DNA of 64,000 nucleotides from a bacterium (GCA_963638555.1 CAVHQU010000001.1:26317-90316); one strand, 5' to 3'. Shown: positions 23,644-50,058, numbered from the stretch's first letter. Made by a program: numbers and translations. The notes: generated by a model not told the origin, from the letters alone.

Positions 23644-24660
23644 TTATCTTTGGACACGACCAGAACCATCTCCACCGGCAAGTTTGTTAACTTCATCAAC
23701 GCTGACAAAGTTGTAGTCGCCTTCGATGGAATGTTTTAAGGCAGAGGCTGCGATTGCAAATTCGATTGCAGCTTGTGGTTCATAATTATTCATTAAGGAA
23801 TAGATTAAGCCACCAGCAAATGAATCACCACCACCAACGCGATCAACGATATGGAGGTTGTATTCTTTTGACATATAAGCATTGCCGTCATAAATCATAC
23901 CGCACCACTTATTGTCTGTTGCAGAGATAGATGTTCTCATTGTAATGCAGACATACTTGAATCCAAATTTGTCTTTTAATTGCTTTGCAACGGAGATATA
24001 TCCATCTTTGTTGAGTTTGCCAGAAGATGTATCGGTTGCTTCGGCTTTGATTCCGAAGACGTCGTTTGCATCATCTTCATTTCCGATAAGGACATCAACA
24101 TATTGCATGAATTCACTCATGACTTCTTTGGCTTTTGCTTTTGACCAAAGCTTGCTACGGTAATTAAGGTCACAAGAGACAGTAACACCATGTTTCTTAC
24201 AAGCTTTCAAGGCTTGACGTGTTATTTCAACGACGTTATCGCCCAAAGCTGGTGTGATGCCAGAGAAATGGAACCAAGTAACACCTTCTAAGATGCTATC
24301 CCAATCATATTCATCAGGATTGGAAAGAGCGAAAGCGGAATTGGCACGATCATAGATAACCTTAGAAGGTCTTTGGGAAGCGCCTTTTTCAAGGAAGTAG
24401 ATTCCTAAACGATCTCCACCACGAACGATCTTGCTTGTATCAACGCCATATCTTCTTAAAGAATTTAAGGCTGCTTGACCAATTTCATGGGATGGGAGTT
24501 TGCTAACGAAAGCAGCATCAATGCCATAATTGGCTAAAGAAACCGCAACGTTTGCCTCACCACCGCCAAATGTTGCTTCTAAGTGATCACATTGGACAAA
24601 ACGGAGATAGTTGTCTGGTTGGAGACGTAACATTAATTCGCCTAAAGTAACAGCTTTCAT
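23644..24660 (-). CDS. kdgK: 2-dehydro-3-deoxygluconokinase (PfkB family)
   Basis: GGGEANVAVSLANYG and PfkB signature GGGDSFAGGLI. Sits in the uxuA-uxaC-eda context. Confidence 0.8.
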   Translation of the reverse strand: MKAVTLGELMLRLQPDNYLRFVQCDHLEATFGGGEANVAVSLANYGIDAAFVSKLPSHEIGQAALNSLRRYGVDTSKIVRGGDRLGIYFLEKGASQRPSKVIYDRANSAFALSNPDEYDWDSILEGVTWFHFSGITPALGDNVVEITRQALKACKKHGVTVSCDLNYRSKLWSKAKAKEVMSEFMQYVDVLIGNEDDANDVFGIKAEATDTSSGKLNKDGYISVAKQLKDKFGFKYVCITMRTSISATDNKWCGMIYDGNAYMSKEYNLHIVDRVGGGDSFAGGLIYSLMNNYEPQAAIEFAIAASALKHSIEGDYNFVSVDEVNKLAGGDGSGRVQR

Positions 24661-24661
24661 T

Positions 24662-25276
24662 TTATTTTCCTCTTACAAGCTCTACAGCTTTTTTTGTTTT
24701 TTCTTCGATTTCTTCGAAGGATCCTTTCATCATCCAGGAACCGCCACATGCAAGGATGTGAGGATATTCAAGATATTCAAGGATGTTATCTTCGTTAACA
24801 CCACCTGTTGGCATGAAGGTAACTTGTGGGAATGGGCCATTTAAGGCTTTGATGGTCTTTAAGCCACCGTAGTTTGAAGCAGGGAAGAACTTAAGAGTTG
24901 TTAAGCCAAGTTCTAATGCTTCCATAATTTCTGTTGGAGTGACACAACCTGGAAGGTAAGGAATGTTATGAGCCTTACAAACGTTATAGACAGAAGCGGA
25001 TAAGCCAGGGGAGACAATGAATTTTGCTCCGACAGAGATTGCTTCTTCTGCTTGAGCGGCGTTGATGACTGTTCCAGCACCAATTAAGGCTTCTGGGAAT
25101 TTTTCAACCGCAACTTTGATAGCGTCTTTTGCACAAGCCGTGCGGAAGGTAATTTCAGCAACTGGAAGTCCACCTTTGACTAAGGCTTCCATAGTTGGAA
25201 TAGCATCTTCAATCTTGTTGATTGCGACAACAGGAACAATGCGATATTGTTTGATTTGTTCTAATACTTTTTCCAT
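24662..25276 (-). CDS. eda: KDPG / KHG aldolase
   Basis: 204 aa with an Eda-family TIM-barrel sequence. Adjacent to kdgK. Confidence 0.8.
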   Translation of the reverse strand: MEKVLEQIKQYRIVPVVAINKIEDAIPTMEALVKGGLPVAEITFRTACAKDAIKVAVEKFPEALIGAGTVINAAQAEEAISVGAKFIVSPGLSASVYNVCKAHNIPYLPGCVTPTEIMEALELGLTTLKFFPASNYGGLKTIKALNGPFPQVTFMPTGGVNEDNILEYLEYPHILACGGSWMMKGSFEEIEEKTKKAVELVRGK

Positions 25277-25278
25277 AT

Positions 25279-26604
25279 TTATTCTCCTAAGAGATTTTTA
25301 ATGTTGTTATATGCAACATTCTTTGCAAGTATTTTAGCGTTTTCTAACGAATATTCACCCGCATCAACTTTTTCACCTAAGAAGGTAGAAAGGATTCTTC
25401 TAAAGAAGTCAAATCTTGAATATGATGAGAATGATCTAGAATCTGTTAACATGCCTAAGTTTGTTCCAAAAAGGGAATACTCAGAGATGATTTCGAGATT
25501 TCTTCTAATTCCTAAGAGAGTATCGTTGAACCACCACGCAGCACCGACTAAGACATTACGGAATGCGCCAGTTATTGTTGCGACTTCTCTAAGCATTTCT
25601 GGATTTAAGGAATAGAGAATGATGGTTGGTCTTTCTTCGTCAGAGATAGAATCAAGGAAATTAATCATGTTTTGGAGGTTAACGCCTTCAGAAATGACAT
25701 CGAATCCTGCATCAGCTCCAACCTTTTTAAACATTGGCGTGTTGATGTTTCTTGTGACGGAGAAGTGAATTTGAACGATGAGATCTCTCTTCTTATATTC
25801 TTTCATCAAGAAGACGAGGAGATATCCAAAGAGGGAATCAAGTTCTTCTTCATTAAGTGAATCTCTCTTGAGATAGAGGGATTTTGCTTCAGAATATGTT
25901 GCAATGTGCTTTGGGAAATTTCTGAAACCATGGTCGGTTATTTTGCAGCCTTTTGACTTGAAGAAATCTAATCTTTCTTCTAAGGCTTTTTGGAATAAAT
26001 CCAAATCAGACAATTCATAACCGACTACTTTGCCTAATTCGCTGATATACTTGGAATCGAAGTTATATAACTTATCAGGTCTGAAAGTAGGAGTGACATT
26101 TGTTTGGCCCACTTGTCCATGATCACAAAGGTCTTCCGTTGGATCGTTGGTTGTAGCGACAAATTCAACATTGAAGAGTTTTAAGAGCTTCTGAACGGAG
26201 AGAGTTTTAAGAACTTTGTTAGCTTCAGCATAGATTTCTTCTGCGCTATCTGCATTAAGTTCTTTGTTGATTCCGAAGACTTGTTGAAGTTCGAAATGTG
26301 TCCAATAATAGAGAGGATTTCCAATCAACAGAGGCATGATAGAAGCATATTTGATGAATTTATCATGGAAAGAGGCGTTGCCAGTGATGTACTCTTCCGG
26401 AACGCCGGCCATTCTCATCGCTCTCCATTTGTAATGATCACCAGCCAACCAAAGTTGACCGATATCTTCAAAGGTAGAGTCAACTTTGATTTTGTGTTGA
26501 TCAAGGTGGCAATGGTAGTCAATAATTGGAAGGTTCTTAATCTCTTGGTATATTTCTTTGCTTGCGTCTCCTTTTAAGAGAACATCTTTGCTAAAGAATT
26601 CCAT
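25279..26604 (-). CDS. uxaC: Glucuronate (uronate) isomerase
   Basis: N-terminal KDVLLKGDASKEIYQEIKNLPIIDYHCHL is typical of UxaC. Length 441 aa. Confidence 0.9.
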   Translation of the reverse strand: MEFFSKDVLLKGDASKEIYQEIKNLPIIDYHCHLDQHKIKVDSTFEDIGQLWLAGDHYKWRAMRMAGVPEEYITGNASFHDKFIKYASIMPLLIGNPLYYWTHFELQQVFGINKELNADSAEEIYAEANKVLKTLSVQKLLKLFNVEFVATTNDPTEDLCDHGQVGQTNVTPTFRPDKLYNFDSKYISELGKVVGYELSDLDLFQKALEERLDFFKSKGCKITDHGFRNFPKHIATYSEAKSLYLKRDSLNEEELDSLFGYLLVFLMKEYKKRDLIVQIHFSVTRNINTPMFKKVGADAGFDVISEGVNLQNMINFLDSISDEERPTIILYSLNPEMLREVATITGAFRNVLVGAAWWFNDTLLGIRRNLEIISEYSLFGTNLGMLTDSRSFSSYSRFDFFRRILSTFLGEKVDAGEYSLENAKILAKNVAYNNIKNLLGE

Positions 26605-26607
26605 AGA

Positions 26608-27459
26608 TCATACTCCGCTATAAGCGCTGAAACCGCCATCAATTGGAAGGACGACGCCAGTGATGAAGGAAGCAGCTTCGCTATTAGAAAGGAATAAGAC
26701 TGCGCCTAAGAGTTCGTCTGGTGTACCAAATCTTCCCATTGGCGTGTTGTTAAGAATCTTGTGGGTTCTTTCAGTTGGCGTGCCATCTGGGTTCCATAAT
26801 AAGGCAGCGTTTTGGGCTGTGGAGAAGAAACCTGGAGCAATGGCATTGACTCTGATACCAGTCTTTGCGAAGTGTGTTGCTAACCATTTTGTGAAGTTAG
26901 AGACGCCTGCTTTGGCAGAGCTATATGCTGGAATCTTTGTTAATGGGGTGAAAGCATTCATGGAAGAGATGTTGAGAATTGAACATCCTTCTTTGCCGAT
27001 CATATCAACAGCAAAAATTTGTGTTGGTAAGAGAGTTCCTAAGATGTTGAGATTGAAAACAAATTGGAAGCCTTCGCTCTTTAAATCAAAGAAAGAGATT
27101 GTGGTCTCGTCAACTTTTTCTTCATAGAATTCTTGGGTTGTGGAAGCTTTTGGGGAGTTTCCGCCAGCACCGTTGATGAGAATGTCGCATTTGCCGAAAT
27201 CAGCAATAATTTGTTGATGGGCTTTTTCAAGGGATTCTTTATCAAGGACATTTGCTTCATATCCTTTTGCGTTGCCACCAAGTTTTCTGATTTCTTCAGC
27301 TTTTGCTTCAGCAGCAGATAAATGTAAGTCTAAAAGAGCGACTTTAGCATGGCAAAGGGCGAATGCTCTAGCCATTTCAGAGCAAAGGACACCGCCTGCT
27401 CCAGTAATAACGACGACTTTGTCTGTGTAATCGACGTATAAAGGTAAATTCTTTTCCAT
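26608..27459 (-). CDS. SDR-family oxidoreductase, probably the SDR-type fructuronate/mannonate reductase of the hexuronate pathway
   Basis: TGAGGVLCSEMARAFA cofactor motif and YSSAKAG (YxxxK). Positioned between uxuA and uxaC. Confidence 0.7.
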   Translation of the reverse strand: MEKNLPLYVDYTDKVVVITGAGGVLCSEMARAFALCHAKVALLDLHLSAAEAKAEEIRKLGGNAKGYEANVLDKESLEKAHQQIIADFGKCDILINGAGGNSPKASTTQEFYEEKVDETTISFFDLKSEGFQFVFNLNILGTLLPTQIFAVDMIGKEGCSILNISSMNAFTPLTKIPAYSSAKAGVSNFTKWLATHFAKTGIRVNAIAPGFFSTAQNAALLWNPDGTPTERTHKILNNTPMGRFGTPDELLGAVLFLSNSEAASFITGVVLPIDGGFSAYSGV

Positions 27460-27483
27460 TATTTTAACTCCTTATAAAGTTTT

Positions 27484-28527
27484 TTATTTTCCGAAGCGGG
27501 TTGCTGCTTCGAATAATCCGTTGATATAAGCACAGCCTAAGGCTCTATCATATAAGCCATAGCCTGGTTTTTGATCCTCGCCCCAGATGTTTCTACCATG
27601 ATCTGGTCTAACATATCCGTCAAATCCATTATCAACTAAGTTTTTGACGATTAAGGCCATATCAAGCGAACCATATCCGGAGAAATGTCCTACTTCCGTG
27701 AATGAATCCTTGTCATCTGTGTACTTAACATTTCTAAGATGGGCGAAGTAGATACGTCCTTCTTTAGCATATTTAGCAGCCATGTGTGGAAGATCATTGT
27801 TTCTTCCTGCGCCAAATGAGCCAGTGCAGAATGTTAAGCCATTGTGGATATCTGGAACGGCTGCAAAGAGCTTATCAAGATCTTCTTCTGAAGAAATGAT
27901 TCTTGGAAGACCGAAGACATCCCATGGTGGATCATCTGGATGGATGGCCATATTGATGCCATATTGATCACAGATTGGCATGATTTGTTTCAAGAAATAG
28001 ACAAGATTGTTGAACAATTGCTCGTGAGAGATATTCTTGTATGTTTCAAGTAAGGCTTGAAGTTCATCTGGTGAATACGATTCATCCCAGCCTGGTAAGT
28101 GAAGGTTATGTGGATCGACCTTGTCGAAATCATCGCGAGAATAAGAAAGGGCATTTGAGCCATCAAATAAAACGTGATGCATATCCGTTCTTAACCAATC
28201 GAAGACAGGCATGAAGTTGTAACAGACGACTTTGACACCGTTTTTAGCACATAATTCAAGGTTTTTCTTGAATGCTTCGATGTGTTCGTCTCTTTTTGCA
28301 GAGCCCATCTTGATATCTTCAGATACTGGAATGGATTCAATAACTTCCATCTTAAGACCATTCTTTTCGCAAGCATCTTTTAATTTAAGAAGAGAAGATT
28401 CTTCCCAAACTTCACCTGCTTTTTTGTCATAGACGGAGGTAACAATTGTCGACATATTTGGAATTTGTCGAATGTGTTCTAGAGGTATGGAATCATTTAA
28501 GCCATACCAACGAAATGAGAGTTTCAT
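27484..28527 (-). CDS. uxuA: Mannonate dehydratase
   Basis: MKLSFRWYGLNDSIPLEHIRQIPNMSTIVTSVYD N-terminus, typical of UxuA. First gene of the operon. Confidence 0.9.
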   Translation of the reverse strand: MKLSFRWYGLNDSIPLEHIRQIPNMSTIVTSVYDKKAGEVWEESSLLKLKDACEKNGLKMEVIESIPVSEDIKMGSAKRDEHIEAFKKNLELCAKNGVKVVCYNFMPVFDWLRTDMHHVLFDGSNALSYSRDDFDKVDPHNLHLPGWDESYSPDELQALLETYKNISHEQLFNNLVYFLKQIMPICDQYGINMAIHPDDPPWDVFGLPRIISSEEDLDKLFAAVPDIHNGLTFCTGSFGAGRNNDLPHMAAKYAKEGRIYFAHLRNVKYTDDKDSFTEVGHFSGYGSLDMALIVKNLVDNGFDGYVRPDHGRNIWGEDQKPGYGLYDRALGCAYINGLFEAATRFGK

Positions 28528-28584
28528 GGTTTTGTTCTCCTAAAGTAACCGAGTATATTGTAACCCTATTAGAATGTTCTTAAA

Positions 28585-28616
28585 TTGCAATATTTAATTT
28601 AAATGTTTGCAAATAT
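28585..28616. promoter_or_regulatory. Operator-like element TTGCAATAT-N13-TTGCAAATAT in the uxuA/araC divergent promoter region
   Basis: Half-site TTGCAATAT shared with the two elements at 28689-28716 and 29564-29591. Confidence 0.4.
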
Positions 28617-28688
28617 CGTTTTTTGATAACGCTTACATTTTTTCAAGAGGCAAAAAACTTAAACTTTATGGGCTTTTTCTTAAAGTTT

Positions 28689-28716
28689 TTGCAATATTTG
28701 ATATTTTATATTGCAT
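28689..28716. promoter_or_regulatory. Palindromic operator-like element TTGCAATAT-N10-ATATTGCAT upstream of the AraC-family regulator gene
   Basis: 15-mer TTTTTGCAATATTTG identical to the copy upstream of the GH2 gene. Two-fold symmetric half-sites with a 10-bp spacer. Confidence 0.45.
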
Positions 28717-28768
28717 TTTATATTTTTTGGCTTTATTGTTTATTTGTAAAATAAAACGGAGAAGAAAC

Positions 28769-29557
28769 ATGTTCTCATTTACAGACAAAGATATCGATAT
28801 AGCTCATAAGTTAGATTACGCCTCATCACCAAAAGATGAATATAACAAGCACATGCATACATTCTATGAACTTCTTCTTTTTGTTCGTGGGGACGTTACC
28901 TACCACGTTGAATCCGAATCAAGGCATCTTGAACCTGGCGATATCATCCTTATGACACCAGGCAAGTTTCATTTTGCCACCGTTAATAAAGATGTTTCAT
29001 ATGAGAGATATGTTTTCAAATTTCCAACTAGCTTAGTTCCACAAAACATTCAAGATAGATTAAAGAATGCTTTTGCTTTTTATTCTTCGAAAAGAAATGT
29101 TGAAAGCTGCGTTAGGTCTTTTGACACCTTCTACGATTCATTTAACGACCAAGATTTGTATCTTCTTTCTGAATGCAAAATTAAAGAGATGCTTATTTAT
29201 TTAGCGAACACAAGAGAATCCGCGCCTGAATATGAGAAGAACGATGTTATACGTGTTCTTGTTGATTATATAGAAGAGCACATCAAAGAAGATTTAACCT
29301 TGGAAAATATCGCAGCAAACTTGCATTATTCAGAATCATATCTCTCAAATCAGTTCAAGAAAGCAATGAAATGTTCCTTGATGAAATACATCCGTTCTAA
29401 GAAAATTGTCATCGCTCAGCAAATGATAAGAGATGGCATGAAAGCCGTCGACGTTGCCGAAGAACTTTCTTTCTCTGATTACTCCACCTTCTATAGAAGT
29501 TACAAAAAGGTTGCCTCAGTTAACCCAAATAGTGATAGAAGAGTAAAGAAACTTTAA
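28769..29557 (+). CDS. AraC-family transcriptional regulator (cupin sensor domain + AraC HTH)
   Basis: C-terminal HTH LHYSESYLSNQFKK...IRSKKIVIAQQMI. Start moved to MFSFTDKD (ATG at 28769 after GGAGAAGAAAC). The ORF-track N-terminal 54 aa is hydrophobic junk that overlaps the promoter repeats. Confidence 0.8.
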   Translation: MFSFTDKDIDIAHKLDYASSPKDEYNKHMHTFYELLLFVRGDVTYHVESESRHLEPGDIILMTPGKFHFATVNKDVSYERYVFKFPTSLVPQNIQDRLKNAFAFYSSKRNVESCVRSFDTFYDSFNDQDLYLLSECKIKEMLIYLANTRESAPEYEKNDVIRVLVDYIEEHIKEDLTLENIAANLHYSESYLSNQFKKAMKCSLMKYIRSKKIVIAQQMIRDGMKAVDVAEELSFSDYSTFYRSYKKVASVNPNSDRRVKKL

Positions 29558-29563
29558 TTATTT

Positions 29564-29591
29564 TTGCAATATTTGGTAATTGATATTGCAA
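29564..29591. promoter_or_regulatory. Palindromic operator-like element TTGCAATAT-N10-ATATTGCAA upstream of the GH2 gene
   Basis: Perfect inverted half-sites. Shares the 15-mer TTTTTGCAATATTTG with the 28686-28700 copy. Confidence 0.45.
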
Positions 29592-29684
29592 TTAAAAGCG
29601 CTTACTTAATAACTTAAAATCAATCTACTTGTTTTAAATCTTATATATAAAGACGAGTATGATAAACACATAGGAGGAATGTTT

Positions 29685-31598
29685 ATGCGTAATGAAATCT
29701 TATTGAACGAAGGTTGGCTTTTCAAGATTGCTGATAAAGCAGAGGAAACAATTAACATTCCACATTCTTGGAATGGCAAAGATGGCCAAGACGGTGGAAA
29801 TGACTATCTTCGTGATGTAGGTCTTTATCGTAAAGAATTCACCTATAAAAAGAAAAAGAGCGAGGACGTGTATTTGATTTTCAATGCCGTTAATTCTCTT
29901 TGTGACGTTTATCTCAATGGTGAAAAGATTATTCATCACGAAGGTGGCTATTCCATTTTTGGTGCCTTAGTCACAGATAAATTAAAAGAAAAGAACGAAC
30001 TTACAGTTTATGCAGATAACAAAGAATATATGCGTGTATATCCTCTTGCTGCAGACTTTACTTTCTATGGTGGCATATACCGCGATGTTAAGTTACTTAG
30101 CGTTCCTACTTCTCATTTCGAATTCAACGATGACATGTCTTCTCCATTGAAATGCACAGTCACAGTTAAAGATGGAGTTGGCACCCTTAACGTTCAAGCA
30201 AAGACAAATACCGAAGATGAGATCATAATCGAACTTATTGACAACGATGGCAATGTCGTTGTCTCTGGAAAACCTAATGAAGATATCAAGGTTTCTTCAC
30301 CTCATCTTTGGAATGGCTTAGAAGATCCGTATTTATATACAGTTAAAGGTAAACTTGTCAAAGATGATAAGATTCTTGATGAAGTAACCACAACAGTCGG
30401 TTTCAGATCATTCTATGTCGATCCTAAAAAAGGTTTCTTCTTAAATGGCAAATCCTATCCATTAAGAGGGGTTGCTAGACACCAAGATAGACCAGGACTT
30501 GGAAACGCTATCAGCAAAGAAGACATGGACGAAGATATTGCTCTTCTTAAAGAGATCGGCGCCACCACAGTTAGATTGTCCCATTATCAACATGATCAGT
30601 ATTTCTATGACTTATGCGATAAAAATGGCATTATCGTTTGGACTGAAATTCCATATATTTCCAAATACTCCCATGAAGCGGATGAAAATGCTGAAAACCA
30701 ATTAAGAGAGTTGATTCATCAATGCTACAATCATCCATCAATTATTTGTTGGGGTGTCTCTAACGAAATCACAATGTTCAGAAAACAGTTTGGAAAGGAT
30801 TGCCGTCAAGATCATAAGAAACTTAACAAATTCTGTCACGATGAGGACCCAAATAGAATCACAGGTGTCGCCTGCTTCTCTGTTATGAATATCTTCAATC
30901 GTGTCGCTCATATAACAGATGTTGCTTCATATAACCTCTATTGGGGATGGTACGTTCCATTCACCCCGATGACTGGATGGATTCTTTCTTGGTGGCACTT
31001 CTTCTACCCACATGGTCCTATCGGATTGAGCGAATATGGTGCAGAAGGCATGCCAAACCTTCATTCCTCTAAGCCAAAGAGATTTGACAATACCGAAGAG
31101 TATCAAGCAATCTATCACGAAAGAATGTTAAAACAAATCAACGCTAGACCATATCTATGGGCAACTCACGTATGGAACATGTTCGATTTTGGCTCTGATG
31201 GCCGTAATCAAGGTGGAGAAAAAGGTATTAATCATAAAGGTTTAGTTACCTTCGATAGAAAAATTAAGAAAGACGCCTTCTATGTCTACAAAGCGTATTG
31301 GTCAAAAGATCCATTTGTTCATATTTGCTCAAAGAGATATGTCAATAGAACTGACAAAAATGCAATAATCAAAGTTTATTCTAATCAAGATAGTGTCTCC
31401 CTTTATAACAATGGCAAACTCATCGCCACGAAGAAAGGCGACAAGATCTTCAAATTCAAGATCAACCTTGCCGAGAAAAATGAAATTAAAGTCGTTTCTG
31501 GAACTTTAGAAGATACAGCATTAATCCTTCGTGTTAAAGAAAGAGATCAATCGTATATCTTGCCAAAAGGCGGAAACAACATGTCCTGGCAAAAATAA
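29685..31598 (+). CDS. Glycoside hydrolase family 2, beta-glucuronidase-like
   Basis: GH2 acid/base WGVSNEI and nucleophile SEYGAEG. GGYSIF sugar-binding region. N-x-K (NHK) in the loop that aligns with the glucuronidase N-K motif. Adjacent to hexuronate catabolic genes. Confidence 0.75.
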   Translation: MRNEILLNEGWLFKIADKAEETINIPHSWNGKDGQDGGNDYLRDVGLYRKEFTYKKKKSEDVYLIFNAVNSLCDVYLNGEKIIHHEGGYSIFGALVTDKLKEKNELTVYADNKEYMRVYPLAADFTFYGGIYRDVKLLSVPTSHFEFNDDMSSPLKCTVTVKDGVGTLNVQAKTNTEDEIIIELIDNDGNVVVSGKPNEDIKVSSPHLWNGLEDPYLYTVKGKLVKDDKILDEVTTTVGFRSFYVDPKKGFFLNGKSYPLRGVARHQDRPGLGNAISKEDMDEDIALLKEIGATTVRLSHYQHDQYFYDLCDKNGIIVWTEIPYISKYSHEADENAENQLRELIHQCYNHPSIICWGVSNEITMFRKQFGKDCRQDHKKLNKFCHDEDPNRITGVACFSVMNIFNRVAHITDVASYNLYWGWYVPFTPMTGWILSWWHFFYPHGPIGLSEYGAEGMPNLHSSKPKRFDNTEEYQAIYHERMLKQINARPYLWATHVWNMFDFGSDGRNQGGEKGINHKGLVTFDRKIKKDAFYVYKAYWSKDPFVHICSKRYVNRTDKNAIIKVYSNQDSVSLYNNGKLIATKKGDKIFKFKINLAEKNEIKVVSGTLEDTALILRVKERDQSYILPKGGNNMSWQK

Positions 31599-31679: not shown

Positions 31680-32150
31680 CTATTCTGCAATAGCTTCTGT
31701 AGATTCGACTTTAACTTCTTTTGTAAGATTGAAGAAGGAACCAACAGCAATAACAATCATTGTTGCGCAATAGATGATGAATGCTGGTCCACCAGTTCCC
31801 ATTGCGCCGACTGCATATTCATTCGTTCTATCTAAGCTTGTCGCCCATACAGTACCAATTAGATAGGTTCTTGAATTGATAACGAAGTAGAAACAAATGC
31901 CAGACAAGACGGCTGCAGCAAGCATTGGGATATACGAAACGAAATGATTTCCGAATTTCAATGACAACGCTACTGAGCCAAGCAAGCAAATTACTGCAAC
32001 AATTGAGAACCCGATGATTAAACCCAATTGAGAAATTTCATATCCTAAGAAGGAAGAAGAAATGATTGTTAGAATCATCGAAGCAAGAATGAGAATTGCT
32101 GAAGCGAGATTAACATAGCTAGCAACGCTTAAATTTTTAATGAATTTCAT
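31680..32150 (-). CDS. Small four-TM membrane protein, function unknown
   Basis: 156 aa, four hydrophobic helices. Its start abuts the GH3 stop (32152), suggesting co-transcription. Confidence 0.5.
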   Translation of the reverse strand: MKFIKNLSVASYVNLASAILILASMILTIISSSFLGYEISQLGLIIGFSIVAVICLLGSVALSLKFGNHFVSYIPMLAAAVLSGICFYFVINSRTYLIGTVWATSLDRTNEYAVGAMGTGGPAFIIYCATMIVIAVGSFFNLTKEVKVESTEAIAE

Positions 32151-32151
32151 A

Positions 32152-35100
32152 TTATTTTGCTCCTTTCTTCTTATTTTCTAAGACAGTGAAGACAACCGTT
32201 CCTGCAGCGCCTAAGAGCACTACAGTTGCAGACGCAGAGATTATTGCAATATAAGCCGCTCTCCACCATGTCATATTTGAAACGATTTCTGTATTTGCAT
32301 TAACGGTATTCATGTAATTGCTTTGAGTGATAACCCAAAGATTACGATGAACTGCTTCTTTAACGTTATTAAGAATCTTCTTGTCATGCTTAACATCTTC
32401 GATATCGAAACCGGAGATGTCATTAATTGTATCTTTGGAGTCAAAAGAGGTGATACCTGCGGCTAATGCTTGTGGAAGATAATCTTCATCATCATTTAAA
32501 TCCGAGACTATATATCCATTATATCCCCATTCTTCTCTAAGAATATTTGTCAATAATCCTTCAGAGCAAGTGACTTCGCATGGGCCAATCTTTGAGAAAG
32601 ATGTCATAACGCCTAAAAGGCCTACATCCTTTTCTTCCGTGTCATATTTATCTGCCTCAAAAGCAATTTGGAAAGCTCTAAGTTCGATTTCACGGGCACG
32701 TTGCTCGTTTAGATATGGTGCAACGCCATCACGATGGGTTTCTTGATCGTTGAATGCAAAATGTTTTGGGGCGGCGATTAAGCCTTTATCAAGTGCACCG
32801 ATGGAATATTCCATACCGGTATTTCCAGTAAGAATTGCATCTTCTGAATAATATTCAATATTACGACCATTATAGCCATTACGATGAGTATTCATTGATG
32901 GGCCCCAAAGAATTGGAAGGCCAACAAAGAGGGCATCATTGCCAATGAGTCTTCCTTCTTCATAGGCAAGTTCATGGCTGAATGTTGCGGCTAGAACTGG
33001 GCCAGAGGTGAAAACTCTCATCTCATATTTGGCATTAGGATCATCTTCAGAAATATGCCAAGGACATTCAGAGACGTTATCACCGAAATTGTTGTAAGAG
33101 ATAGTTTGGAAAGCTTGATCGCCAACCCCATTAGGGCCATTTTCGGTGAATTTTCCGCCAAGGAATCCAACGGAATCCATCGCTAAGAAGTCTCTATTGC
33201 CATGAACGATGAAATTCAACGCGTCTTCAAGGTTCAATTGATCTAATAAAGATGACCAATCTTGGTAATCATAGTCAGCCCCCTTAAGGTTAACGTAATT
33301 TAAATCCCCTTCTTGATCGAACTTGATTAAAGAAACGTCATCATTTGTTGATGGCTCATACATCATGCCATTGATGATTTGAATCATCTCTGGGGTTGCC
33401 TCAAGACCTTTGTATTCTTTTGGCCACGTGCCAGACCAGTCATTGCGGGAGAGATAAGTGACAGCATTTTCTTGATATGTGTTGAAATCTGCACCTGAGA
33501 GATTGTTCTTTACTTGAACGCCCGCTTTAGTGACATTGAATGTGTCAGAATCAGTTTCGGAAACGTCATAATTATAAAGATAGGCTTTAGAAGGTTCACC
33601 ATTAGCTGACGAATACCCTTGTCTTGCTAAGATGTTATTGACAGCTTCGTGAGCACCATTGCCAATGGAGAAATAGTAATCTCCTCCATCAAGAATATAA
33701 GAGCCTTCGCCGCCTTTTGCTAAAGAATCCCATGAAGCAATGTTTTGCATATCAACTTCAATGGTGAGAGTAACGCTTTGATCTGGATCTAAAAGAGCGG
33801 TTTTATCATATGCTAATAATTGAATTGCACTCTTTTCAACACCGTTAGCGATATTTTCTTCTGTGTATGGTGCTTGGCCATAGATTTGAACAACGTGCTT
33901 ACCAGCTTTAGAGCCAGTGTTAGTGACTTTAACTTCAAATTCCATCTTGAATTCATGGGCTTTATGGGTAATTTTTGGTTCACCAACGAATTCTTCGGAG
34001 AATGTTGTATATGAAAGGCCGTAGCCAAATGGATATGAAACTTCTTTATCGTAATCCCAATTGCCTTCATAAGAAGATCCTGCAGTTGAATTTGCGTTGC
34101 CTTTATTAGCAATCGCATCGGCATATCTGGTTTCATAATAATGATATCCAGTGTAGATACCTTCCGCTTCAATAACGTAATATTGGCCTGAAGCGCTGGA
34201 TTTTAAACGTTTGGCGAATTCAGATGCGTCATTGGAATATTTATATTCTCCCATGTTGATTGTGGCAGGGGCAGAAAGGCTATATGAAGCATAGGTGTCA
34301 GGTAAATGTCCCGATGGATTTATGCTGCCATTAAGGATTTCAGCAACTGCACGTGTGCCATAGTTTCCGCCAATGCCCATCCAAAGGATGGCATCTATGC
34401 CTTCGTCTTGCTTTAAATCATCGATTTCCATTTGGTTAACGGCATTGACGATAACGATGACTTTCTTACATTTGGACTTGGCATATTCGATAATGTTCTT
34501 TTCATTTGTCGAAAGCTGCATTGGATTATCCATACCAGCTGCTGGGTCAACTTGATCTTTAGTCCAGTCAACACCTTCGGTAGCGGCTCTGCCAACAACA
34601 ACAATACCAGCATCGTTATATTCTAAAATAGAATCTTCTGCAGCCGAATCTCTTGTGAGTAAATCGTCAATCGTTGCTTCTTTTGGGTTGAAGCCATTTC
34701 CGCCAGCATAGGTTGCATATGCGCCTTGTGGTGGATAATCATTCTCTAATATCTTATTATCAGAGCAGTAAGCGTCATATGCATCAGCAAGAGTTTCGTT
34801 AACTGAGAATCCGGCTTCCTTTAAAGCATCACGGAAATGAACAGTTTGATTATTTCCTGCCGCTTTATGACCAATAAATGCACCAGTAATCGTTGCTGAC
34901 GAACGAATACCAAATAAAGAAACTTTGCATTTATTGTCGTTACTCGTGTTTAAAGGTAAGGTTCCATCATTCTTTAAAAGAACGGTTCCTTCTCCTTGTA
35001 TTTCTTTTGCTAAATCTTCGTGGGCTTTAACGAGTTTAGCTGAATCGCCTTTGCCATCTGTGAGCAATTCTTCGTCTGGAGTGAAAGTATTGAATAACTC

Positions 35101-35259
35101 TCCTTCTCCTTTTTGAACTAATTTAGTTGAATGGGTTCCGAAAAAACCATCGAGTGTGCCTGCGTTTGCTTCCATAACATTGGCGGCCGCAATACCGAAT
35201 ACTAATGTCGATGCAAATACAAACGTGAGGCCTCTGCTTACGCGTTTTAGTTTAGCCAT
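32152..35259 (-). CDS. Glycoside hydrolase family 3, domain-permuted paralog with signal peptide and C-terminal TM anchor
   Basis: GRNIEYYSEDAILTGN and KHFAFNDQE near the C-terminus. N-terminal region has the GH3 C-domain signature (LLKNDGTLPLNT). C-terminal helix AAYIAIISASATVVLLGAAGTVVF. Confidence 0.8.
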   Translation of the reverse strand: MAKLKRVSRGLTFVFASTLVFGIAAANVMEANAGTLDGFFGTHSTKLVQKGEGELFNTFTPDEELLTDGKGDSAKLVKAHEDLAKEIQGEGTVLLKNDGTLPLNTSNDNKCKVSLFGIRSSATITGAFIGHKAAGNNQTVHFRDALKEAGFSVNETLADAYDAYCSDNKILENDYPPQGAYATYAGGNGFNPKEATIDDLLTRDSAAEDSILEYNDAGIVVVGRAATEGVDWTKDQVDPAAGMDNPMQLSTNEKNIIEYAKSKCKKVIVIVNAVNQMEIDDLKQDEGIDAILWMGIGGNYGTRAVAEILNGSINPSGHLPDTYASYSLSAPATINMGEYKYSNDASEFAKRLKSSASGQYYVIEAEGIYTGYHYYETRYADAIANKGNANSTAGSSYEGNWDYDKEVSYPFGYGLSYTTFSEEFVGEPKITHKAHEFKMEFEVKVTNTGSKAGKHVVQIYGQAPYTEENIANGVEKSAIQLLAYDKTALLDPDQSVTLTIEVDMQNIASWDSLAKGGEGSYILDGGDYYFSIGNGAHEAVNNILARQGYSSANGEPSKAYLYNYDVSETDSDTFNVTKAGVQVKNNLSGADFNTYQENAVTYLSRNDWSGTWPKEYKGLEATPEMIQIINGMMYEPSTNDDVSLIKFDQEGDLNYVNLKGADYDYQDWSSLLDQLNLEDALNFIVHGNRDFLAMDSVGFLGGKFTENGPNGVGDQAFQTISYNNFGDNVSECPWHISEDDPNAKYEMRVFTSGPVLAATFSHELAYEEGRLIGNDALFVGLPILWGPSMNTHRNGYNGRNIEYYSEDAILTGNTGMEYSIGALDKGLIAAPKHFAFNDQETHRDGVAPYLNEQRAREIELRAFQIAFEADKYDTEEKDVGLLGVMTSFSKIGPCEVTCSEGLLTNILREEWGYNGYIVSDLNDDEDYLPQALAAGITSFDSKDTINDISGFDIEDVKHDKKILNNVKEAVHRNLWVITQSNYMNTVNANTEIVSNMTWWRAAYIAIISASATVVLLGAAGTVVFTVLENKKKGAK

Positions 35260-35347
35260 ATAGTCCTCCTAAAATGAAAACGCTATCATTCTCACATTTA
35301 TTATTAAAACTTTCAAAACAAGATTACCGATATGATTGATTTCGCAA

Positions 35348-35388
35348 AGAAAAAATAAAAAATGCAATACTTATGAGATGTATTGCAT
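35348..35388 (-). terminator. Terminator after the cupin gene
   Basis: ATGCAATAC-TTATGAGAT-GTATTGCAT perfect 9-bp stem, preceded on the plus strand by AAAAAATAAAAA, which is a T-run on the minus strand. Confidence 0.6.
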
Positions 35389-35412: not shown

Positions 35413-35766
35413 TTAGAAAGCAACGATTAGAAGCATCTTGAATCTTTCTAATCCATATACGGCATGTGGGTGGTGAGCAGGCATGACGATTGTTTCGCCT
35501 TCATTGAGGATATGTTCAATGCCATCAATGGTGATTTTTCCTTTGCCATCTAAGCAAATTACCATAGCGTCTCCACCAGATTCATGAGTGCTAATCTCTT
35601 CATCTTTTTCAAAAGAGAAAAGAGTCATGCTTATCACGGAATTTTGGATGAGTGTCTTAGAGACGACTTGACCATCTTGATAAGAAATTTCATCTTTCAA
35701 AGAGAGGACTTCTGCCATTTTGATGTTTTTAAGTTTTGATTTGTTTTCGTTAATTTGTATTTTCAT
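35413..35766 (-). CDS. Cupin-domain protein
   Basis: 117 aa. The small beta-barrel pattern (HAHPHAVYGL... GETIVMPA) fits the cupin_2 fold. Confidence 0.55.
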   Translation of the reverse strand: MKIQINENKSKLKNIKMAEVLSLKDEISYQDGQVVSKTLIQNSVISMTLFSFEKDEEISTHESGGDAMVICLDGKGKITIDGIEHILNEGETIVMPAHHPHAVYGLERFKMLLIVAF

Positions 35767-45589: not shown

Positions 45590-48034
45590 TTATTTCCCTT
45601 TCTTCCCCTGAGCTTTTTTCTCTTTCTTTCTAAGGCGACCCATTTTGTTGAAATGGTGCAAGCCTTTCCAGAAATGGCCATTAAACATCATAATGAGGCC
45701 ATCGAGTTGAGCCATGCTCATTGCTCCACCTGTCATTCTAGATAAAGCACGAACAGGGTTGTAGTATACACCCATTACAAGTGTATTTGCAGTAGTTCTT
45801 TTTCCAATTTTACGTAAAAACTTAATTGCGAAACGAATTGCGCCCGCAAATCTTCTACCAGCAAATCCTTTTGCGTAATGCAAATCAGATATAGAAGAAT
45901 TGTAATCGACCTTAATACGATGTTTCTTGATGTAAGAAGATTCTTTGGCTGGAAGTTCTCCGCCTAAGAGTTCCTTAAATTCATCATCACCGATCTGTCT
46001 AACTTCGCCAGAGAAGTAATGAGGAAGCTTATTTTTATCATAGATACCTGTGGCATCTTTGCCTTCAACTTTGATTTCTCCAGTGAGTGGGAGTTCTTTT
46101 GAGGAAGGGCCAACATATATTTGGTATGTTCCACCTTCAACTTGGAATTTATTATCTTTGACGTCCCAATAACGGAAAGAATATTCATCAAATGGGATTG
46201 TTACTTCAACGGTTTCGCCTGCTTTGATAAAGACTTTCTTGAAGCCTTTTAATTCATATGCTGGGCGGAAGATCTTTGAACCTTTCATGCCGATATACAT
46301 TTGAGCAATTTCTTTTCCATCGACATCGCCTGTATTTGTAATGGAGAACTTAACACCATCTTTTGAAACTGTTAAATTGTCGTATTTATATGTTGTATAG
46401 CTTAAGCCATAGCCAAATGGGAAACGGGAACCAGTCTTATCGCCATTGTAATAACGATACCCGATGAATAAGCCTTCACGGTATTCAATGTTCTTGTCGT
46501 TTTTGCCAAAGTGATCGGCGGAAGGGCAATCGGCGTAGCCATATGGATATGATTCTGCTAATTTGCCAGATGGGTTAACCTTGCCAGTAAGGATGTTAAG
46601 AATAGCCTTAGCGCCTGCTTCACCGGATAGGTAAGCGTGTAAAATTGCATCTACTCTATCAGCAAATGGCATTTCGATTGGAGCACCGCATTCAAGGATG
46701 AGAACAATCTTCTTGCCTGTATGATATAAGGCAGAAATAAGTTCCCTTTGATTGCCAGGAAGACGAATATTGGCTCTATCTATGCCTTCTGCTTCAGTGA
46801 CTTCATCTAAACCGCAGAAAAGAAGAACGGTGTCAGCCTTTTCAACAAGCTTAAGGGCTTTATCAATTAAGCGTTGGCTCTTTTTGCCATAACGCTTGAA
46901 ACCTTTTTCATAGCCAACAACATTCAAGTTGTAATCTTTAAGAACATCGTTGATTTGATCAACCTTCAATGGATTAACAACTGATGAACCAGCACCTTGA
47001 TAACGCATATTCTCAGCAAAATCACCAACGATAGCAACTTTCTCTCCTTCTTTTAATGGAAGAGCGTTGTTCTTGTTCTTTAGAAGGACGAGGGATTCTT
47101 CAGCGACTTTTTGTGCAAGCGCATGGTGTTCTTCTTTATTAAACTCTTTTGGAGCTTTTTTGAGATTTTCCGTAGTTTTAATAACGACATCTATAATGCC
47201 ATCGGCAAGAATATCGACGTCTTCTTCTTTTAAACGACCATCTTTAACAGCTTGAACAACTTCTCTATTTGTCTCGCCATCAGTTGTAGGCATTTCAAGT
47301 TCGGATTGGGCTTTGACAGCTTCGATACGATCGTTATCACCACCCCAATCAGAGACGACTATACCATCAAATCCCCAAGTATCGCGTAAGATTTCTTTCA
47401 ATAAATGTGGATTCTCGTTTGCGTATACTCCATTAATTTTGTTATAAGAGGACATGACAGAGAGAGGTTTCGCTTCTTTGACGGTAATTTCAAAAGCGGT
47501 TAAATAGATTTCTCTAAGTGTTCTTTCATCGACAACTGAATTAGAAGTAATTCTTCTGATTTCTTGGTTGTTTGCAGCAAAATGTTTTAAACAAACGCCG
47601 ATACCGTTTTCTTGAACACCATTTGTGTATCCAACAGCAAGTTTGCCTGCAAGATATGGGTCTTCGGAGAAATATTCAAAGTTTCTTCCACAACGTGGAT
47701 TTCTTTTCATGTTGATGCCAGGGCCCAAAAGAAGAGAGACATCATTAGCAGCCGCTTCTTCACCAATTGTTTTACCAACGATGTAAAGAAGATCGGGGTC
47801 CCACGAAGATGCCGATGTAGCACTTGTTGGCATACATACTGCAGGGATTGATGGGTTAAGGCCTAAATGGTCTGCGGCCTTAGCCTGTTTTCTAAGACCG
47901 TTAGGACCATCAGAAAGGAACATGCTAGGAACATTAACGGATGGTATTTCTTGTGTTTGCCAAAAATCCTTTCCTGATAAGAGAGAGGCTTTCTCTTCTA
48001 AAGTCATCTTGTCTAATATATCTTGATGTTTCAT
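45590..48034 (-). CDS. Glycoside hydrolase family 3 beta-glucosidase (canonical domain order, cytoplasmic)
   Basis: GRNFEYFSEDPYLAGK and KHFAANNQE. Nucleophile region GIVVSDWGG. No signal peptide. C-terminal Fn3-like GYGLSYTTY. Confidence 0.85.
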   Translation of the reverse strand: MKHQDILDKMTLEEKASLLSGKDFWQTQEIPSVNVPSMFLSDGPNGLRKQAKAADHLGLNPSIPAVCMPTSATSASSWDPDLLYIVGKTIGEEAAANDVSLLLGPGINMKRNPRCGRNFEYFSEDPYLAGKLAVGYTNGVQENGIGVCLKHFAANNQEIRRITSNSVVDERTLREIYLTAFEITVKEAKPLSVMSSYNKINGVYANENPHLLKEILRDTWGFDGIVVSDWGGDNDRIEAVKAQSELEMPTTDGETNREVVQAVKDGRLKEEDVDILADGIIDVVIKTTENLKKAPKEFNKEEHHALAQKVAEESLVLLKNKNNALPLKEGEKVAIVGDFAENMRYQGAGSSVVNPLKVDQINDVLKDYNLNVVGYEKGFKRYGKKSQRLIDKALKLVEKADTVLLFCGLDEVTEAEGIDRANIRLPGNQRELISALYHTGKKIVLILECGAPIEMPFADRVDAILHAYLSGEAGAKAILNILTGKVNPSGKLAESYPYGYADCPSADHFGKNDKNIEYREGLFIGYRYYNGDKTGSRFPFGYGLSYTTYKYDNLTVSKDGVKFSITNTGDVDGKEIAQMYIGMKGSKIFRPAYELKGFKKVFIKAGETVEVTIPFDEYSFRYWDVKDNKFQVEGGTYQIYVGPSSKELPLTGEIKVEGKDATGIYDKNKLPHYFSGEVRQIGDDEFKELLGGELPAKESSYIKKHRIKVDYNSSISDLHYAKGFAGRRFAGAIRFAIKFLRKIGKRTTANTLVMGVYYNPVRALSRMTGGAMSMAQLDGLIMMFNGHFWKGLHHFNKMGRLRKKEKKAQGKKGK

Positions 48035-48066
48035 TTTAATTCTCCATAATGAAAGTCAACGATGAC

Positions 48067-50058
48067 TTAGGCAGCTAAACCAGATTGTTGTGCTTTTTCT
48101 TTAAGAGATGCAAATTCAGCATTGATCTTTTCTTCTTGAGAAGCTCTCTTTGCTAAGATAGCATTCTTCTTCTCTTCTGGAAGAGCATCAAATTTAGCTT
48201 GTTTTGCGGCTTCTTTTTGAGCCTTCTTTGCTTCAGAAGCGGCTTTCTTTGCGGCTGCTGCTTCATCTTTTTTCGATTTTTCGAGTAAATACTTATTATT
48301 TTCTTCCTCGAAGTTAAGGTGTTTCTTTTCGCAATCGATCTTTAATTGAGCAACGCGTGCTTCTTCAACCAAACGAGCATTTTCTGCTTCTTCTTTAGCA
48401 GCTCTCTCTTCTGGTTCTAACCATTCTTTTCCTTCTGCTAATGTACGAGCTTTTTGATCGGCGACAATTGTGATGTTGTCAATTTTTGTGAATTTCTCAA
48501 CATTCATTCCTAAGAACATGATACCCATGATAAGGTAGCAACCGCCTTCGACGAGATAGCCAAGGATTGTATGAAGAACTTTGCCATATTCTGGGAAAGC
48601 TGAGTTAAGACCGACAATGATACCATTACAGACGCCAGACATAGCGACCATGATGGAACCGTAGATAGACATTGTGAATCCATCAGTTCTCTTACCATAT
48701 AACGCTTCTTGGTGGTCAAGAACGTTAGCAAGAAGAGCTAATGAGATATACATAGCTGGGGCTGTGCCTAATGCTTTGACCATGAAGGATGCAACTGAGA
48801 CACCCCAAACTGCGTTATCAGAAACGCCAGGGATTAAACAAACAAGGGAGATGAGCGATGCAACAAATGCAAGGGCACATCCGCCAAGGATTGTTTTTGA
48901 TTTTGTGAATTTATTGGCGAGAGGCCAAACAAGCAACATACCAACGGCTGTTGGAATAGCGCCTAAAGTATTGATTAATGAAGAGAGGGATGTTCCTCCA
49001 GTAAAGGCTTGAGAATAGAATGAAAGGTCATTGTTCTTCATTTGACCACCGAATTGGTAGAGGAAGAAGAATATCATGATGATCCACCAATATTTGTCTT
49101 TCATACAAATCTTAATTTGTTGACCCATAGAAACACCTTTTGCAGGTGCAGCGTTTTCTGAAGTTCCTTCTACTTCTTTCATTTCGAGGGTCTTGACATT
49201 CTCTTCGGTAATTCTTTCACGCGTGAAGTAATATTCAAGCAAGCAGCCAATAACTAAGCAAACAATCATGATTACCATGAGAATCGTCCATTTGCTATTT
49301 GCTTGTTCTGGAGTGATTTTTGTAATAACGTTCGAAGCGTTGTTTCCTGCTGCTTCGAGAGCTTCTTTGTAAGTTGAATAATTCTTATCGCCAACATTAT
49401 AAACAGGCAATAAGCCAATTAAATCAACTAATAAGCCGCCTGCCATGCCAGAAAGTCCAGCAGCGCCAAGTTGGGCAGCCATAATGCAAGTAGAGAGAAG
49501 TCCACGAGCTCCACCATCTCTTGTTGAGAGGTTAACTAACGCAGAATGGGAAGTGTAATAGATTGGCCATGCAAACGCATAATAGAGGTTATAGCCAATA
49601 GCAATGATGATGCTAGCCCAAAGGTTTGAGAAAGAACCGCCGGTTCCGCCAATATTTGCTGCAGTACCATTTCCAACTGGAAGAGGAACTAAGAATAAAA
49701 CTAATAAAGCGATAGCAACCAATGGCATTCCTAAAAGAATGAATGGTCTAGCTTTACCAGCCATTGTTGGTTTTCTTTCCATCAATTTACCAACGGAGAT
49801 ATTGCCTATAACGATAAGTATGGCAGATAAGATTGGTAAGAGAGTCTCAAAGAGAGAATTCCACTGACCAAGCATTAAGACCTTGTCCCAATACTGGATG
49901 AGCCAAATGTTAACAACACCATTTGAAATGAGGGCAAGGATTGGTCCGAGAAGATAGCCAAGGGCTGCTTCAGGGAAGAGTTTCACACCATTACTCTTGA
50001 TCTTGGTTGACAAGAGAGGGGTAGTGAAGATTGATTTTTTAGATTTTGTCTTCGACAT
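48067..50058 (-). CDS. GPH/MFS-type glycoside transporter with a long K/A/E-rich C-terminal tail
   Basis: Twelve-TM core. Start moved to MSKTKSKK (ATG at 50058 with RBS AAGGAGCA). Tail AAAAKKAASEAKKAQKEAAKQAKFDALPEEKKNAILAKRAS. Confidence 0.7.
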   Translation of the reverse strand: MSKTKSKKSIFTTPLLSTKIKSNGVKLFPEAALGYLLGPILALISNGVVNIWLIQYWDKVLMLGQWNSLFETLLPILSAILIVIGNISVGKLMERKPTMAGKARPFILLGMPLVAIALLVLFLVPLPVGNGTAANIGGTGGSFSNLWASIIIAIGYNLYYAFAWPIYYTSHSALVNLSTRDGGARGLLSTCIMAAQLGAAGLSGMAGGLLVDLIGLLPVYNVGDKNYSTYKEALEAAGNNASNVITKITPEQANSKWTILMVIMIVCLVIGCLLEYYFTRERITEENVKTLEMKEVEGTSENAAPAKGVSMGQQIKICMKDKYWWIIMIFFFLYQFGGQMKNNDLSFYSQAFTGGTSLSSLINTLGAIPTAVGMLLVWPLANKFTKSKTILGGCALAFVASLISLVCLIPGVSDNAVWGVSVASFMVKALGTAPAMYISLALLANVLDHQEALYGKRTDGFTMSIYGSIMVAMSGVCNGIIVGLNSAFPEYGKVLHTILGYLVEGGCYLIMGIMFLGMNVEKFTKIDNITIVADQKARTLAEGKEWLEPEERAAKEEAENARLVEEARVAQLKIDCEKKHLNFEEENNKYLLEKSKKDEAAAAKKAASEAKKAQKEAAKQAKFDALPEEKKNAILAKRASQEEKINAEFASLKEKAQQSGLAA

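Follow-up and report, generated by a model that had tools for sequence, protein, structure and literature searches.

In a 64,000-nt stretch of bacterial DNA (GCA_963638555.1, CAVHQU010000001.1:26317-90316; hereafter the window), three copies of a palindromic element stand at three promoters of a hexuronate locus: those of the uxuA operon, of a gene for an AraC/XylS-family regulator, and of a gene for a beta-glucuronidase (GUS) homologue of glycoside hydrolase family 2 (GH2). The three sites are very probably operators of the adjacent regulator (28769-29557), which is their putative binder. The explanation that we consider probable as a whole, with some reserve, is that a dimer of this regulator would occupy both boxes of each site, activate the uxuA operon and the GH2 gene, and limit its own synthesis. 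Directly readable in the DNA are the three sites with their strict spacing, the conservation and the link to the regulator gene, and two distinct promoter registers; these carry the argument below.

Three sites with one spacing

Reading of the sequence and a pattern scan gave exactly three TTGCAA-N16-TTGCA(A/T) sites in the window:

28585-28612, no strand: site 1, TTGCAATATTTAATTTAAATGTTTGCAA, composed as TTGCAATAT-TTAATTTAAA-TGTTTGCAA; promoter of the uxuA operon
28689-28716, no strand: site 2, TTGCAATATTTGATATTTTATATTGCAT, composed as TTGCAATAT-TTGATATTTT-ATATTGCAT, TTGCAA-N16-TTGCAT; the regulator's own promoter
29564-29591, no strand: site 3, TTGCAATATTTGGTAATTGATATTGCAA, composed as TTGCAATAT-TTGGTAATTG-ATATTGCAA; promoter of the GH2 (beta-glucuronidase) gene

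Sites 1 and 2 lie between the divergent uxuA and AraC-family genes, and site 3 lies in the short gap between the AraC-family gene and GH2. Site 3 is a perfect palindrome, TTGCAATAT-N10-ATATTGCAA, and site 2 has a single mismatch to it, at the final base. In site 1, whose uxuA-proximal box is 28585-28590, the outer TTGCAA cores are exact and the right half is without the inner ATAT (3 mismatches).

An earlier, sequence-only reading of this DNA had proposed a shared operator at the three promoters, and the statistics bear it out. With up to three mismatches allowed, the 18-base pattern had 3 matches in 64 kb against 0.21 expected, and none of 100 shuffles reached 3. Moreover, a symmetrised position weight matrix (PWM) built from 82 sites of other genomes, with the window sites left out, scored site 1 at 31.4, site 3 at 28.4 and site 2 at 26.7 bits; the next-best position in the window reached 7.3 bits, and the best position per shuffle ranged from -0.1 to 17.0 bits (20 shuffles). 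The 15-mer said to be common to sites 2 and 3, TTTTTGCAATATTTG, was found at 28686-28700 and 29561-29575. Site 1 had been assigned a variant spacing (28585-28616), which has to be corrected: aligned on its TTGCAA cores it has N16 as in the other two sites, and the variant arose because the wrong flank was paired (mis-registration). There was no Rfam match in 28400-29800 at E <= 1, and an RNA-element reading of the site region was rejected on this empty scan.

Conservation in related genomes

Homologues of the regulator were followed from 100% down to about 40% identity and reduced to one genome per species, which left 80 loci (39-93% identical). Most come from uncultured gut or rumen Bacilli ("Mollicutes"/RF39-like, Enterosoma) and Clostridia (Christensenella-like, "Coproplasma"). 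Box pairs at spacings 8 to 25 were counted in these loci together with the window segment, 1.11 Mb in all. Exact pairs numbered 50 at N16 against 0-5 at each other spacing, and pairs with at most one mismatch numbered 104 at N16 against 7-31 elsewhere. Upstream of uxuA, the araC homologue, GH2 or uxaC stood 93 of the 104 N16 sites, with site-to-ATG distances of 50-68 bp for uxuA, mostly 28-55 bp for the regulator gene and 43-102 bp for GH2. Five of the remaining 11 sites lie upstream of a gene for a GPH/MFS_2 sugar transporter, which brings the assigned sites to about 98 of 104; in L004-L006 and L011 this transporter gene stands behind the site, between the regulator gene and GH2. Among the mapped genes, none of the 104 sites was flagged inside a homologue of the window's locus genes.

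The gene order, uxuA-uxuB(-uxaC-eda-kdgK) divergent from the regulator gene with GH2 downstream, is strongly kept to about 40% regulator identity, and a site stands 5' of the regulator gene even where catabolic genes are not adjacent (e.g. L046, L058, L074). Loci without an N16 match mostly have variant boxes (TCGCAA...TTGCAC, or N15) or carry the regulator gene within an operon. In alignments of both intergenic regions among close relatives, the boxes are invariant and spacer and flanks drift; at site 3 both boxes are invariant in 12 relatives. The sequence-only reading had named conservation in orthologous loci as one test that could overturn it and footprinting across related genomes as a further check, and the motif was kept in both. 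Its proposal of a single regulator for the three promoters gains from the shared site and from synteny over 80 loci; that the AraC-type protein does the binding we infer.

Two promoter registers

The promoter elements predicted for the three transcription units are as follows:

28557-28584, minus strand: predicted core promoter of the uxuA operon; -35 TTTAAG (28584-28579), 16-nt spacer, -10 TACAAT (28562-28557)
28711-28716, plus strand: predicted -35 of the regulator gene, which is the proximal box TTGCAT of site 2
28734-28739, plus strand: predicted -10 of the regulator gene, TATTGT, 17 nt after TTGCAT and aligned with TATAAT of L004 and L006
29592-29620, plus strand: core promoter of GH2 predicted by a promoter scan; -35 TTAAAA (29592-29597), 17-nt spacer, -10 TAAAAT (29615-29620)

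For the related loci, each site was oriented to its target and scanned for -10-like hexamers, with unique sites only. On the uxuA side (30 sites) the start of the -10 has a clear mode at 22-23 nt from the proximal box, with 15 counts at each of these offsets and at most 7 elsewhere, and the -10 columns are invariant in the relatives' alignment. On the GH2 side, 19 of 24 unique sites have a -10 that begins 23 nt from the box, and the columns T.A.AAT are invariant in 12 loci. The six bases that follow the box on these two sides are -35-like (TTGAAx, TTTAAG, TTAAAA). From the -10 offset and these six bases, the box at uxuA and GH2 directly adjoins the predicted -35, with an overlap of about 2 nt when the extended box is considered. 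In AraC-type operators, too, the proximal half-site abuts or overlaps the -35.

On the araC side the clear mode for the start of the -10 is 16-17 nt from the box (12 and 27 counts, 50 unique sites), which makes the proximal box (often TTGCAT) the -35 hexamer; T28734 of the regulator -10 is invariant in the alignment. Where the divergent region is compact (about 110 bp), a single site serves the promoters on both sides, each in its own register. In L014-L020, L038, L042, L046, L053-L058, L061, L066, L072 and L079, the ATG of the regulator gene follows the -10 (TATAAT) by about 6 nt, without a Shine-Dalgarno sequence. This arrangement occurs in many Clostridia-type loci, some 30 nt 5' of the araC homologue. 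The regulator mRNA in these loci is probably leaderless, which accounts for the class of 28-32 bp site-to-ATG distances.

The regulator and the shape of its presumed operator

The gene that accompanies the sites is:

28769-29557, plus strand: AraC/XylS-family regulator, 262 aa; N-terminal cupin sensor and C-terminal double helix-turn-helix (HTH)

Homologue alignment places its start at ATG 28769, and the stop is at 29557. Pfam gives AraC_binding (1.4e-13), HTH_AraC (1.4e-14) and HTH_18 (9.9e-14), and sequence matches in the PDB are MarA, SoxS and Rob. A structure model (pLDDT 91.7) matches ToxT and Rns over the full length and AraC (2ARC, 1XJA) and BgaR in the N-terminal domain; over the DNA-binding domain, Foldseek TM values to MarA, SoxS, 3OOU and 3LSG are 0.75-0.87. 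The protein therefore has both the C-terminal two-HTH domain of about 100 aa that marks the AraC/XylS family and the cupin sensor/dimerisation domain of the sugar-responsive subgroup. A cupin metal signature, H-x-H-x3-E...H (H28, H30, E34, H68), is invariant in 43 homologues, which hints at metal-assisted binding of a uronate ligand or carboxylate.

Over 100 unique sites the box is ATTGCAAT, i.e. [A/t]TTGCAA[T/a], a self-complementary octamer. The base 5' of each box is A in 65-70% and otherwise mostly T, the base 3' is T in 65-71% and otherwise mostly A, and beyond these an A-rich stretch lies 5' of each box and a T-rich stretch 3'. Since the box is self-complementary, a pair of boxes can be read as an inverted repeat and equally as a direct one of 22-bp period, and the half-site orientation, direct or inverted, is unreadable from it. 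Sorting the flank logos by target gene does not reveal the orientation either, since promoter constraints dominate the flanks. The ATAT extension, which makes the window sites resemble a 9-bp inverted repeat, is weakly conserved in other genomes.

The sequence-only reading had seen a tension between the symmetry of the element and the AraC-type protein. This conflict is removed by the self-complementary boxes, by the 22-bp period and by the inverted half-sites of RhaS (PMC11983282). The period corresponds to two half-sites about two helical turns apart at a fixed spacing, as in AraC-type operators. No enrichment was seen for a third box in phase (plus or minus 22 bp), and a tandem-array reading was rejected for that reason. 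Predicted sites of AraC-family regulators in Firmicutes are large-spacer repeats 5' of promoters and were interpreted as sites of activators (PMC8579813).

Genes of the locus

Genes were assigned by Pfam and NCBIfam profile searches, and GH2 was also compared with solved structures:

23644-28527, minus strand: predicted target operon uxuA - mannonate oxidoreductase of the short-chain dehydrogenase/reductase (SDR) type - uxaC - eda - kdgK, with gaps of 1-24 nt
27484-28527, minus strand: uxuA, start 28527 (Pfam/NCBIfam)
26608-27459, minus strand: SDR-type D-mannonate oxidoreductase (Pfam/NCBIfam)
25279-26604, minus strand: uxaC (Pfam/NCBIfam)
24662-25276, minus strand: eda (Pfam/NCBIfam)
23644-24660, minus strand: kdgK (Pfam/NCBIfam)
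29679-31598, plus strand: GH2 beta-glucuronidase homologue, putative target gene (match to 7KGZ)

By these assignments the operon would lead from glucuronate to pyruvate and glyceraldehyde-3-phosphate. GH2 matches the solved beta-glucuronidase 7KGZ with E = 3e-192, and 6MVG, 6MVH and 6MVF as well. Its N-x-K motif for the glucuronate carboxylate is NHK, aligned to NQK of 7KGZ. With the GH2 fold and this motif it is a predicted gut beta-glucuronidase; the NCBIfam beta-glucuronidase LacZ4 model gives 555 bits, under the model cutoff. The open reading frame opens at ATG 29679; ATG 29685 is probably the true start, since AGGAGG at 29672-29677 and the 7KGZ alignment, which starts at residue 3, favour it. 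The identities given earlier to uxuA, the AraC-family gene and GH2 are confirmed by these searches, and with them the reading of the locus as one for glucuronide cleavage and glucuronate catabolism holds. A survey of genes and domains found no regulator gene in the locus besides the AraC-type one, which had been taken as the sole local regulator.

How the regulator may act, and alternatives

A dimer of the cupin and double-HTH protein would most likely sit on the two ATTGCAAT boxes, the centres of which are 22 bp (two turns) apart. For the uxuA operon and GH2, the box nearer the promoter would lie against a weak -35, in the position of an activator. AraC, RhaS and XylS activate from a position against or overlapping the -35; the corresponding position of the box here suggests that the protein probably switches on uxuA and GH2 once it senses glucuronate or a glucuronide. 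The -35 of the regulator gene is the proximal box itself, and thus binding probably limits synthesis of the regulator (probable autorepression). Which protein binds, that it does so as a dimer, whether it activates or represses, and what induces it are all deduced in this explanation.

Several points weigh against it. The 64-kb window is the one stretch of the source genome that was scanned. Loci were picked via the regulator gene, and co-occurrence of site and regulator is hence partly built in. All promoter elements are predictions from consensus and conservation. The catabolic -35 and -10 hexamers (e.g. TTGAAC-17-TAAAAT) are not very poor, so a dependence on an activator is not obvious. In addition, the strongly conserved part of a half-site is 8-10 bp and self-complementary, and the asymmetric sites that characterised double-HTH monomers of the AraC family usually read span about 17-20 bp. 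Presumably the second HTH touches the AT-rich flank with little specificity.

The most serious alternative, which we regard as unlikely yet worth keeping in mind, is that the same protein acts at the same sites as a ligand-released repressor of all three promoters, either by blocking RNA polymerase or an UP element just 5' of the -35 or by looping between sites 1 and 2 (104 bp). The identity of box and -35 at the regulator's own promoter and the reasonable -35 and -10 hexamers of the catabolic promoters would fit a repressor. In the window, L001, L002, L003 and L012, some 10 helical turns separate sites 1 and 2 (103-105 bp), which would permit looping, and AraC does repress by looping (PMC11983282). 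However, the site at uxuA and GH2 leaves -35, spacer and -10 free, in a fixed register typical of class II-like activation. Moreover, the GH2 promoter has one site and no loop partner, many relatives have a single site in a 110-bp divergent region, and AraC-family sugar regulators mostly activate (PMC8579813).

A second alternative is that an unlinked hexuronate or glucuronide regulator, for example of the GntR, LacI or TetR type, reads the motif, and that the AraC-type gene is merely a regulated neighbour. A short self-complementary box is the usual target of many dimeric HTH repressors, 64 kb of the genome are visible, and the binding by the AraC protein is itself deduced. This possibility is improbable, because the site accompanies the AraC homologue in nearly all loci, among them those without adjacent uxu or GH2 genes, and also in a distant relative (L140, described below) whose regulator is 27% identical; in addition, no other regulator gene is found in the locus, and two boxes 22 bp apart misfit a single GntR, LacI or TetR dimer. 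The operators of UxuR/ExuR and GusR also differ in sequence from the motif.

That the elements are not operators at all, but products of chance in AT-rich intergenic DNA, plain promoter hexamers or hairpin terminators, is hardly credible: TTGCAA does resemble a -35 (cf. TTGACA) and acts as one at the regulator promoter, a metagenome scan for the perfect pattern gives many unrelated matches, and a hairpin of similar appearance (35362-35388) probably terminates transcription, but the excess of exact pairs at N16, the invariance of both boxes where flanks diverge, a distal box without a promoter role, the lack of a T-run after the sites and the empty Rfam scan of 28400-29800 all speak against it, and chance or a pure promoter element is excluded by the spacing statistics together with the conservation of the distal box.

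The metagenome scan, for exact TTGCAATAT-N10-ATATTGCAA in contigs, gave at least 120 matches, mostly environmental; among the matches listed none stands beside uxu or GH2 genes and two lie near distant AraC-like genes. It is uninformative on specificity because an 18-base AT-rich palindrome arises by chance at such a scale. On the contig Ga0310691_10216871 (L140), a perfect AATTGCAATAT-N10-ATATTGCAATT at 884-911 stands 5' of the AraC-family gene whose product is the relative just mentioned. A TATAAT lies there 17 nt after the box, in the same register in which the box equals the -35. The perfect site at this low identity suggests that the box may be common to a wider clade of regulators.

Returning to activation by the AraC-type regulator, a more detailed version can be drawn, which we offer tentatively and would not yet expect to hold in every part. 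It joins a two-way 28-bp operator, a 6-bp shift that sets the sign, metal-assisted sensing and a role as the main GUS switch. The self-complementary recognition box would let a 28-bp operator serve in either direction. In the divergent region of about 110 bp that many relatives have, a single site would then activate the uxuA operon, against whose -35 the box lies, and throttle the often leaderless regulator mRNA, for which the box is the -35; the 6-bp shift of register would set the sign of regulation. If this is true, the regulator may be the main switch of 7KGZ/6MVG-related beta-glucuronidases in uncultured gut Bacilli and Clostridia. Enzymes of this kind in the gut are implicated in reactivating drug and hormone glucuronides, and toxin glucuronides are also reactivated by gut GUS. 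To our knowledge, the only characterised control of gut GUS expression is by the TetR-type GusR of Enterobacteria.

Our results offer a concrete operator and candidate regulator, with defined promoters, for widespread uncultured gut Firmicutes (RF39-like Bacilli, Christensenellales-like Clostridia), and the pair predicts inducibility by glucuronate or glucuronides. They also give a clean example of one self-complementary operator in two promoter registers, within a conventional class of mechanism. Operator and regulon are of an uncharacterised but conventional AraC-family type, with no departure from known principles. In the literature we found no paper that names an AraC-type glucuronide regulator or the motif, and the one related report was on gene neighbourhood (PMC4732671); absence from the papers searched is not proof.

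Comparison with known systems

A close parallel in arrangement is E. coli AraC, also a cupin and double-HTH sugar regulator that is divergent from a catabolic operon and acts on its own promoter as well (PMC11983282). Its araI1 and araI2 half-sites at araC/araBAD are 21 bp apart, compared with 22 bp here, and the proximal one touches or overlaps the -35 (PMC11983282). However, araI1 and araI2 are asymmetric 17-bp direct repeats, whereas the box here is 8 bp and self-complementary, with undefined orientation. E. coli AraC further has a distant O2-type half-site and a CRP site, neither of which was seen here, and the window regulator has low sequence identity to it (55 bits with the NCBIfam AraC model, for which the cutoff is 208).

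For RhaS and RhaR of E. coli (rhaBAD, rhaSR), which are activators of the AraC family, inverted half-sites about 16 bp apart overlap the -35, as AraC sites also do (PMC11983282), and thus a symmetric site is compatible with the AraC family. The Rha half-sites are 17-18 bp within a 50-bp site, whereas the conserved span here is 28-32 bp, and effector and taxon differ.

In gut metagenomes, genes for GUS, the C7D2 glucuronide transporter and an AraC-family regulator were found co-localised (PMC4732671). Compared by description, this resembles our locus in placing an AraC-family gene beside GUS and a GPH-type glucuronide transporter in gut Firmicutes, and the 'YSIRK-adjacent' AraC model of NCBIfam, the best named model for the window regulator, is also the best named relative of those regulators. 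Unlike in that arrangement, the transporter homologue of the window (48067-50058) is 19 kb away, in another operon without a site. The text of PMC4732671 has no mention of 'promoter' or 'palindrom' and treats gene neighbourhood only, so the paper appears to describe no operator.

GusR/UidR (TetR) and UxuR/ExuR (GntR) of Enterobacteria do the same job, coupling glucuronide cleavage and glucuronate catabolism to substrate. They belong to other families and are repressors on single short palindromes that overlap the promoter. In our locus there is no TetR or GntR gene, the regulator is AraC-type, and two boxes 22 bp apart lie upstream of the -35. PecR, HemR and AxuRS of Caldicellulosiruptor are local AraC-type regulators with predicted sites that are large-spacer repeats 5' of promoters, as here (PMC8579813), and the sensor domain of Clostridium perfringens BgaR is a structural neighbour of that of the window regulator. 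These systems have other effectors and motifs, and uxuAB of Caldicellulosiruptor is assigned to LacI-type XynR, not to an AraC-type protein (PMC8579813).

Catabolite responsive element (cre)-type boxes

Three boxes of this type lie at genes discussed here or in the next section:

28624-28637, minus strand: cre-type box TGTAAGCGTTATCA, exact match to the consensus TGWAANCGNTNWCA, between sites 1 and 2
29593-29606: cre-like TAAAAGCGCTTACT, in the -35/-10 spacer of GH2, 2 mismatches to the consensus
35275-35288: exact cre TGAAAACGCTATCA, directly upstream of the start of a gene of glycoside hydrolase family 3 (GH3; 35259, minus strand)

The window has 20 cre matches against 5.7 expected, and the boxes match TGWAANCGNTNWCA in or near promoters of sugar utilisation, as cre sites do. 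The box at 28624-28637 is kept in 6 of 9 close relatives; it lies upstream of both operators, an unusual place for simple promoter occlusion. In the cre-like box of GH2, 12 related loci all keep the core AAGCGCTT.C, with varying bases around it. CcpA would be the protein expected at these boxes, which, beside or inside the promoters, would add catabolite repression to the control by the AraC-type regulator.

Other elements of the window and its relatives

Upstream of this GH3 gene, the hairpin ATGCAATAC-N9-GTATTGCAT (35362-35388), with arms much like the operator boxes, was considered as a fourth site and rejected for its N15 spacing and low PWM score. A T-run follows it on the minus strand, and it is thus most likely the terminator of the cupin gene 35413-35766. 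In L002, L003 and L012 the equivalent element has N16 spacing, and there may be a weak regulator site there.

The GH3 protein itself (31680-35259, 1035 aa) carries a signal-like segment at its N terminus and a membrane anchor at its C terminus, and is circularly permuted, with the GH3 C-terminal domain before the N-terminal domain. Its gene runs in the same direction as that of a 156-aa membrane protein; in L002, L003, L009 and L012 the pair is syntenic with the locus, and in the window it is without an operator.

The minus-strand operon 45590-50058, with genes for a GPH/MFS_2 transporter (48067-50058) and another GH3 protein (45590-48034), was considered as a member of the regulon and rejected, being without the site and having its own, different tandem repeat. 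Upstream of it a perfect 17-bp direct repeat, ACGAAATGACATTTTTT, occurs twice in tandem with a 21-bp period (50130-50167), together with a cre with 1 mismatch (50075-50088). The repeat resembles a direct-repeat operator of the AraC type, separate from the sites above. This transporter shares 69% identity with the one that stands behind a TTGCAA-N16-TTGCAA site in L004-L006.

Ten of the loci (L002-L004, L007-L009, L012, L019, L077 and L078) come from metagenome-assembled genomes with CAV... accessions, whose titles name Escherichia coli, Bacteroides uniformis, Prevotella, Alistipes and others. These genomes nevertheless carry the Bacilli-type locus with 70-97% protein identity to the window, and their taxonomic bin labels look wrong.

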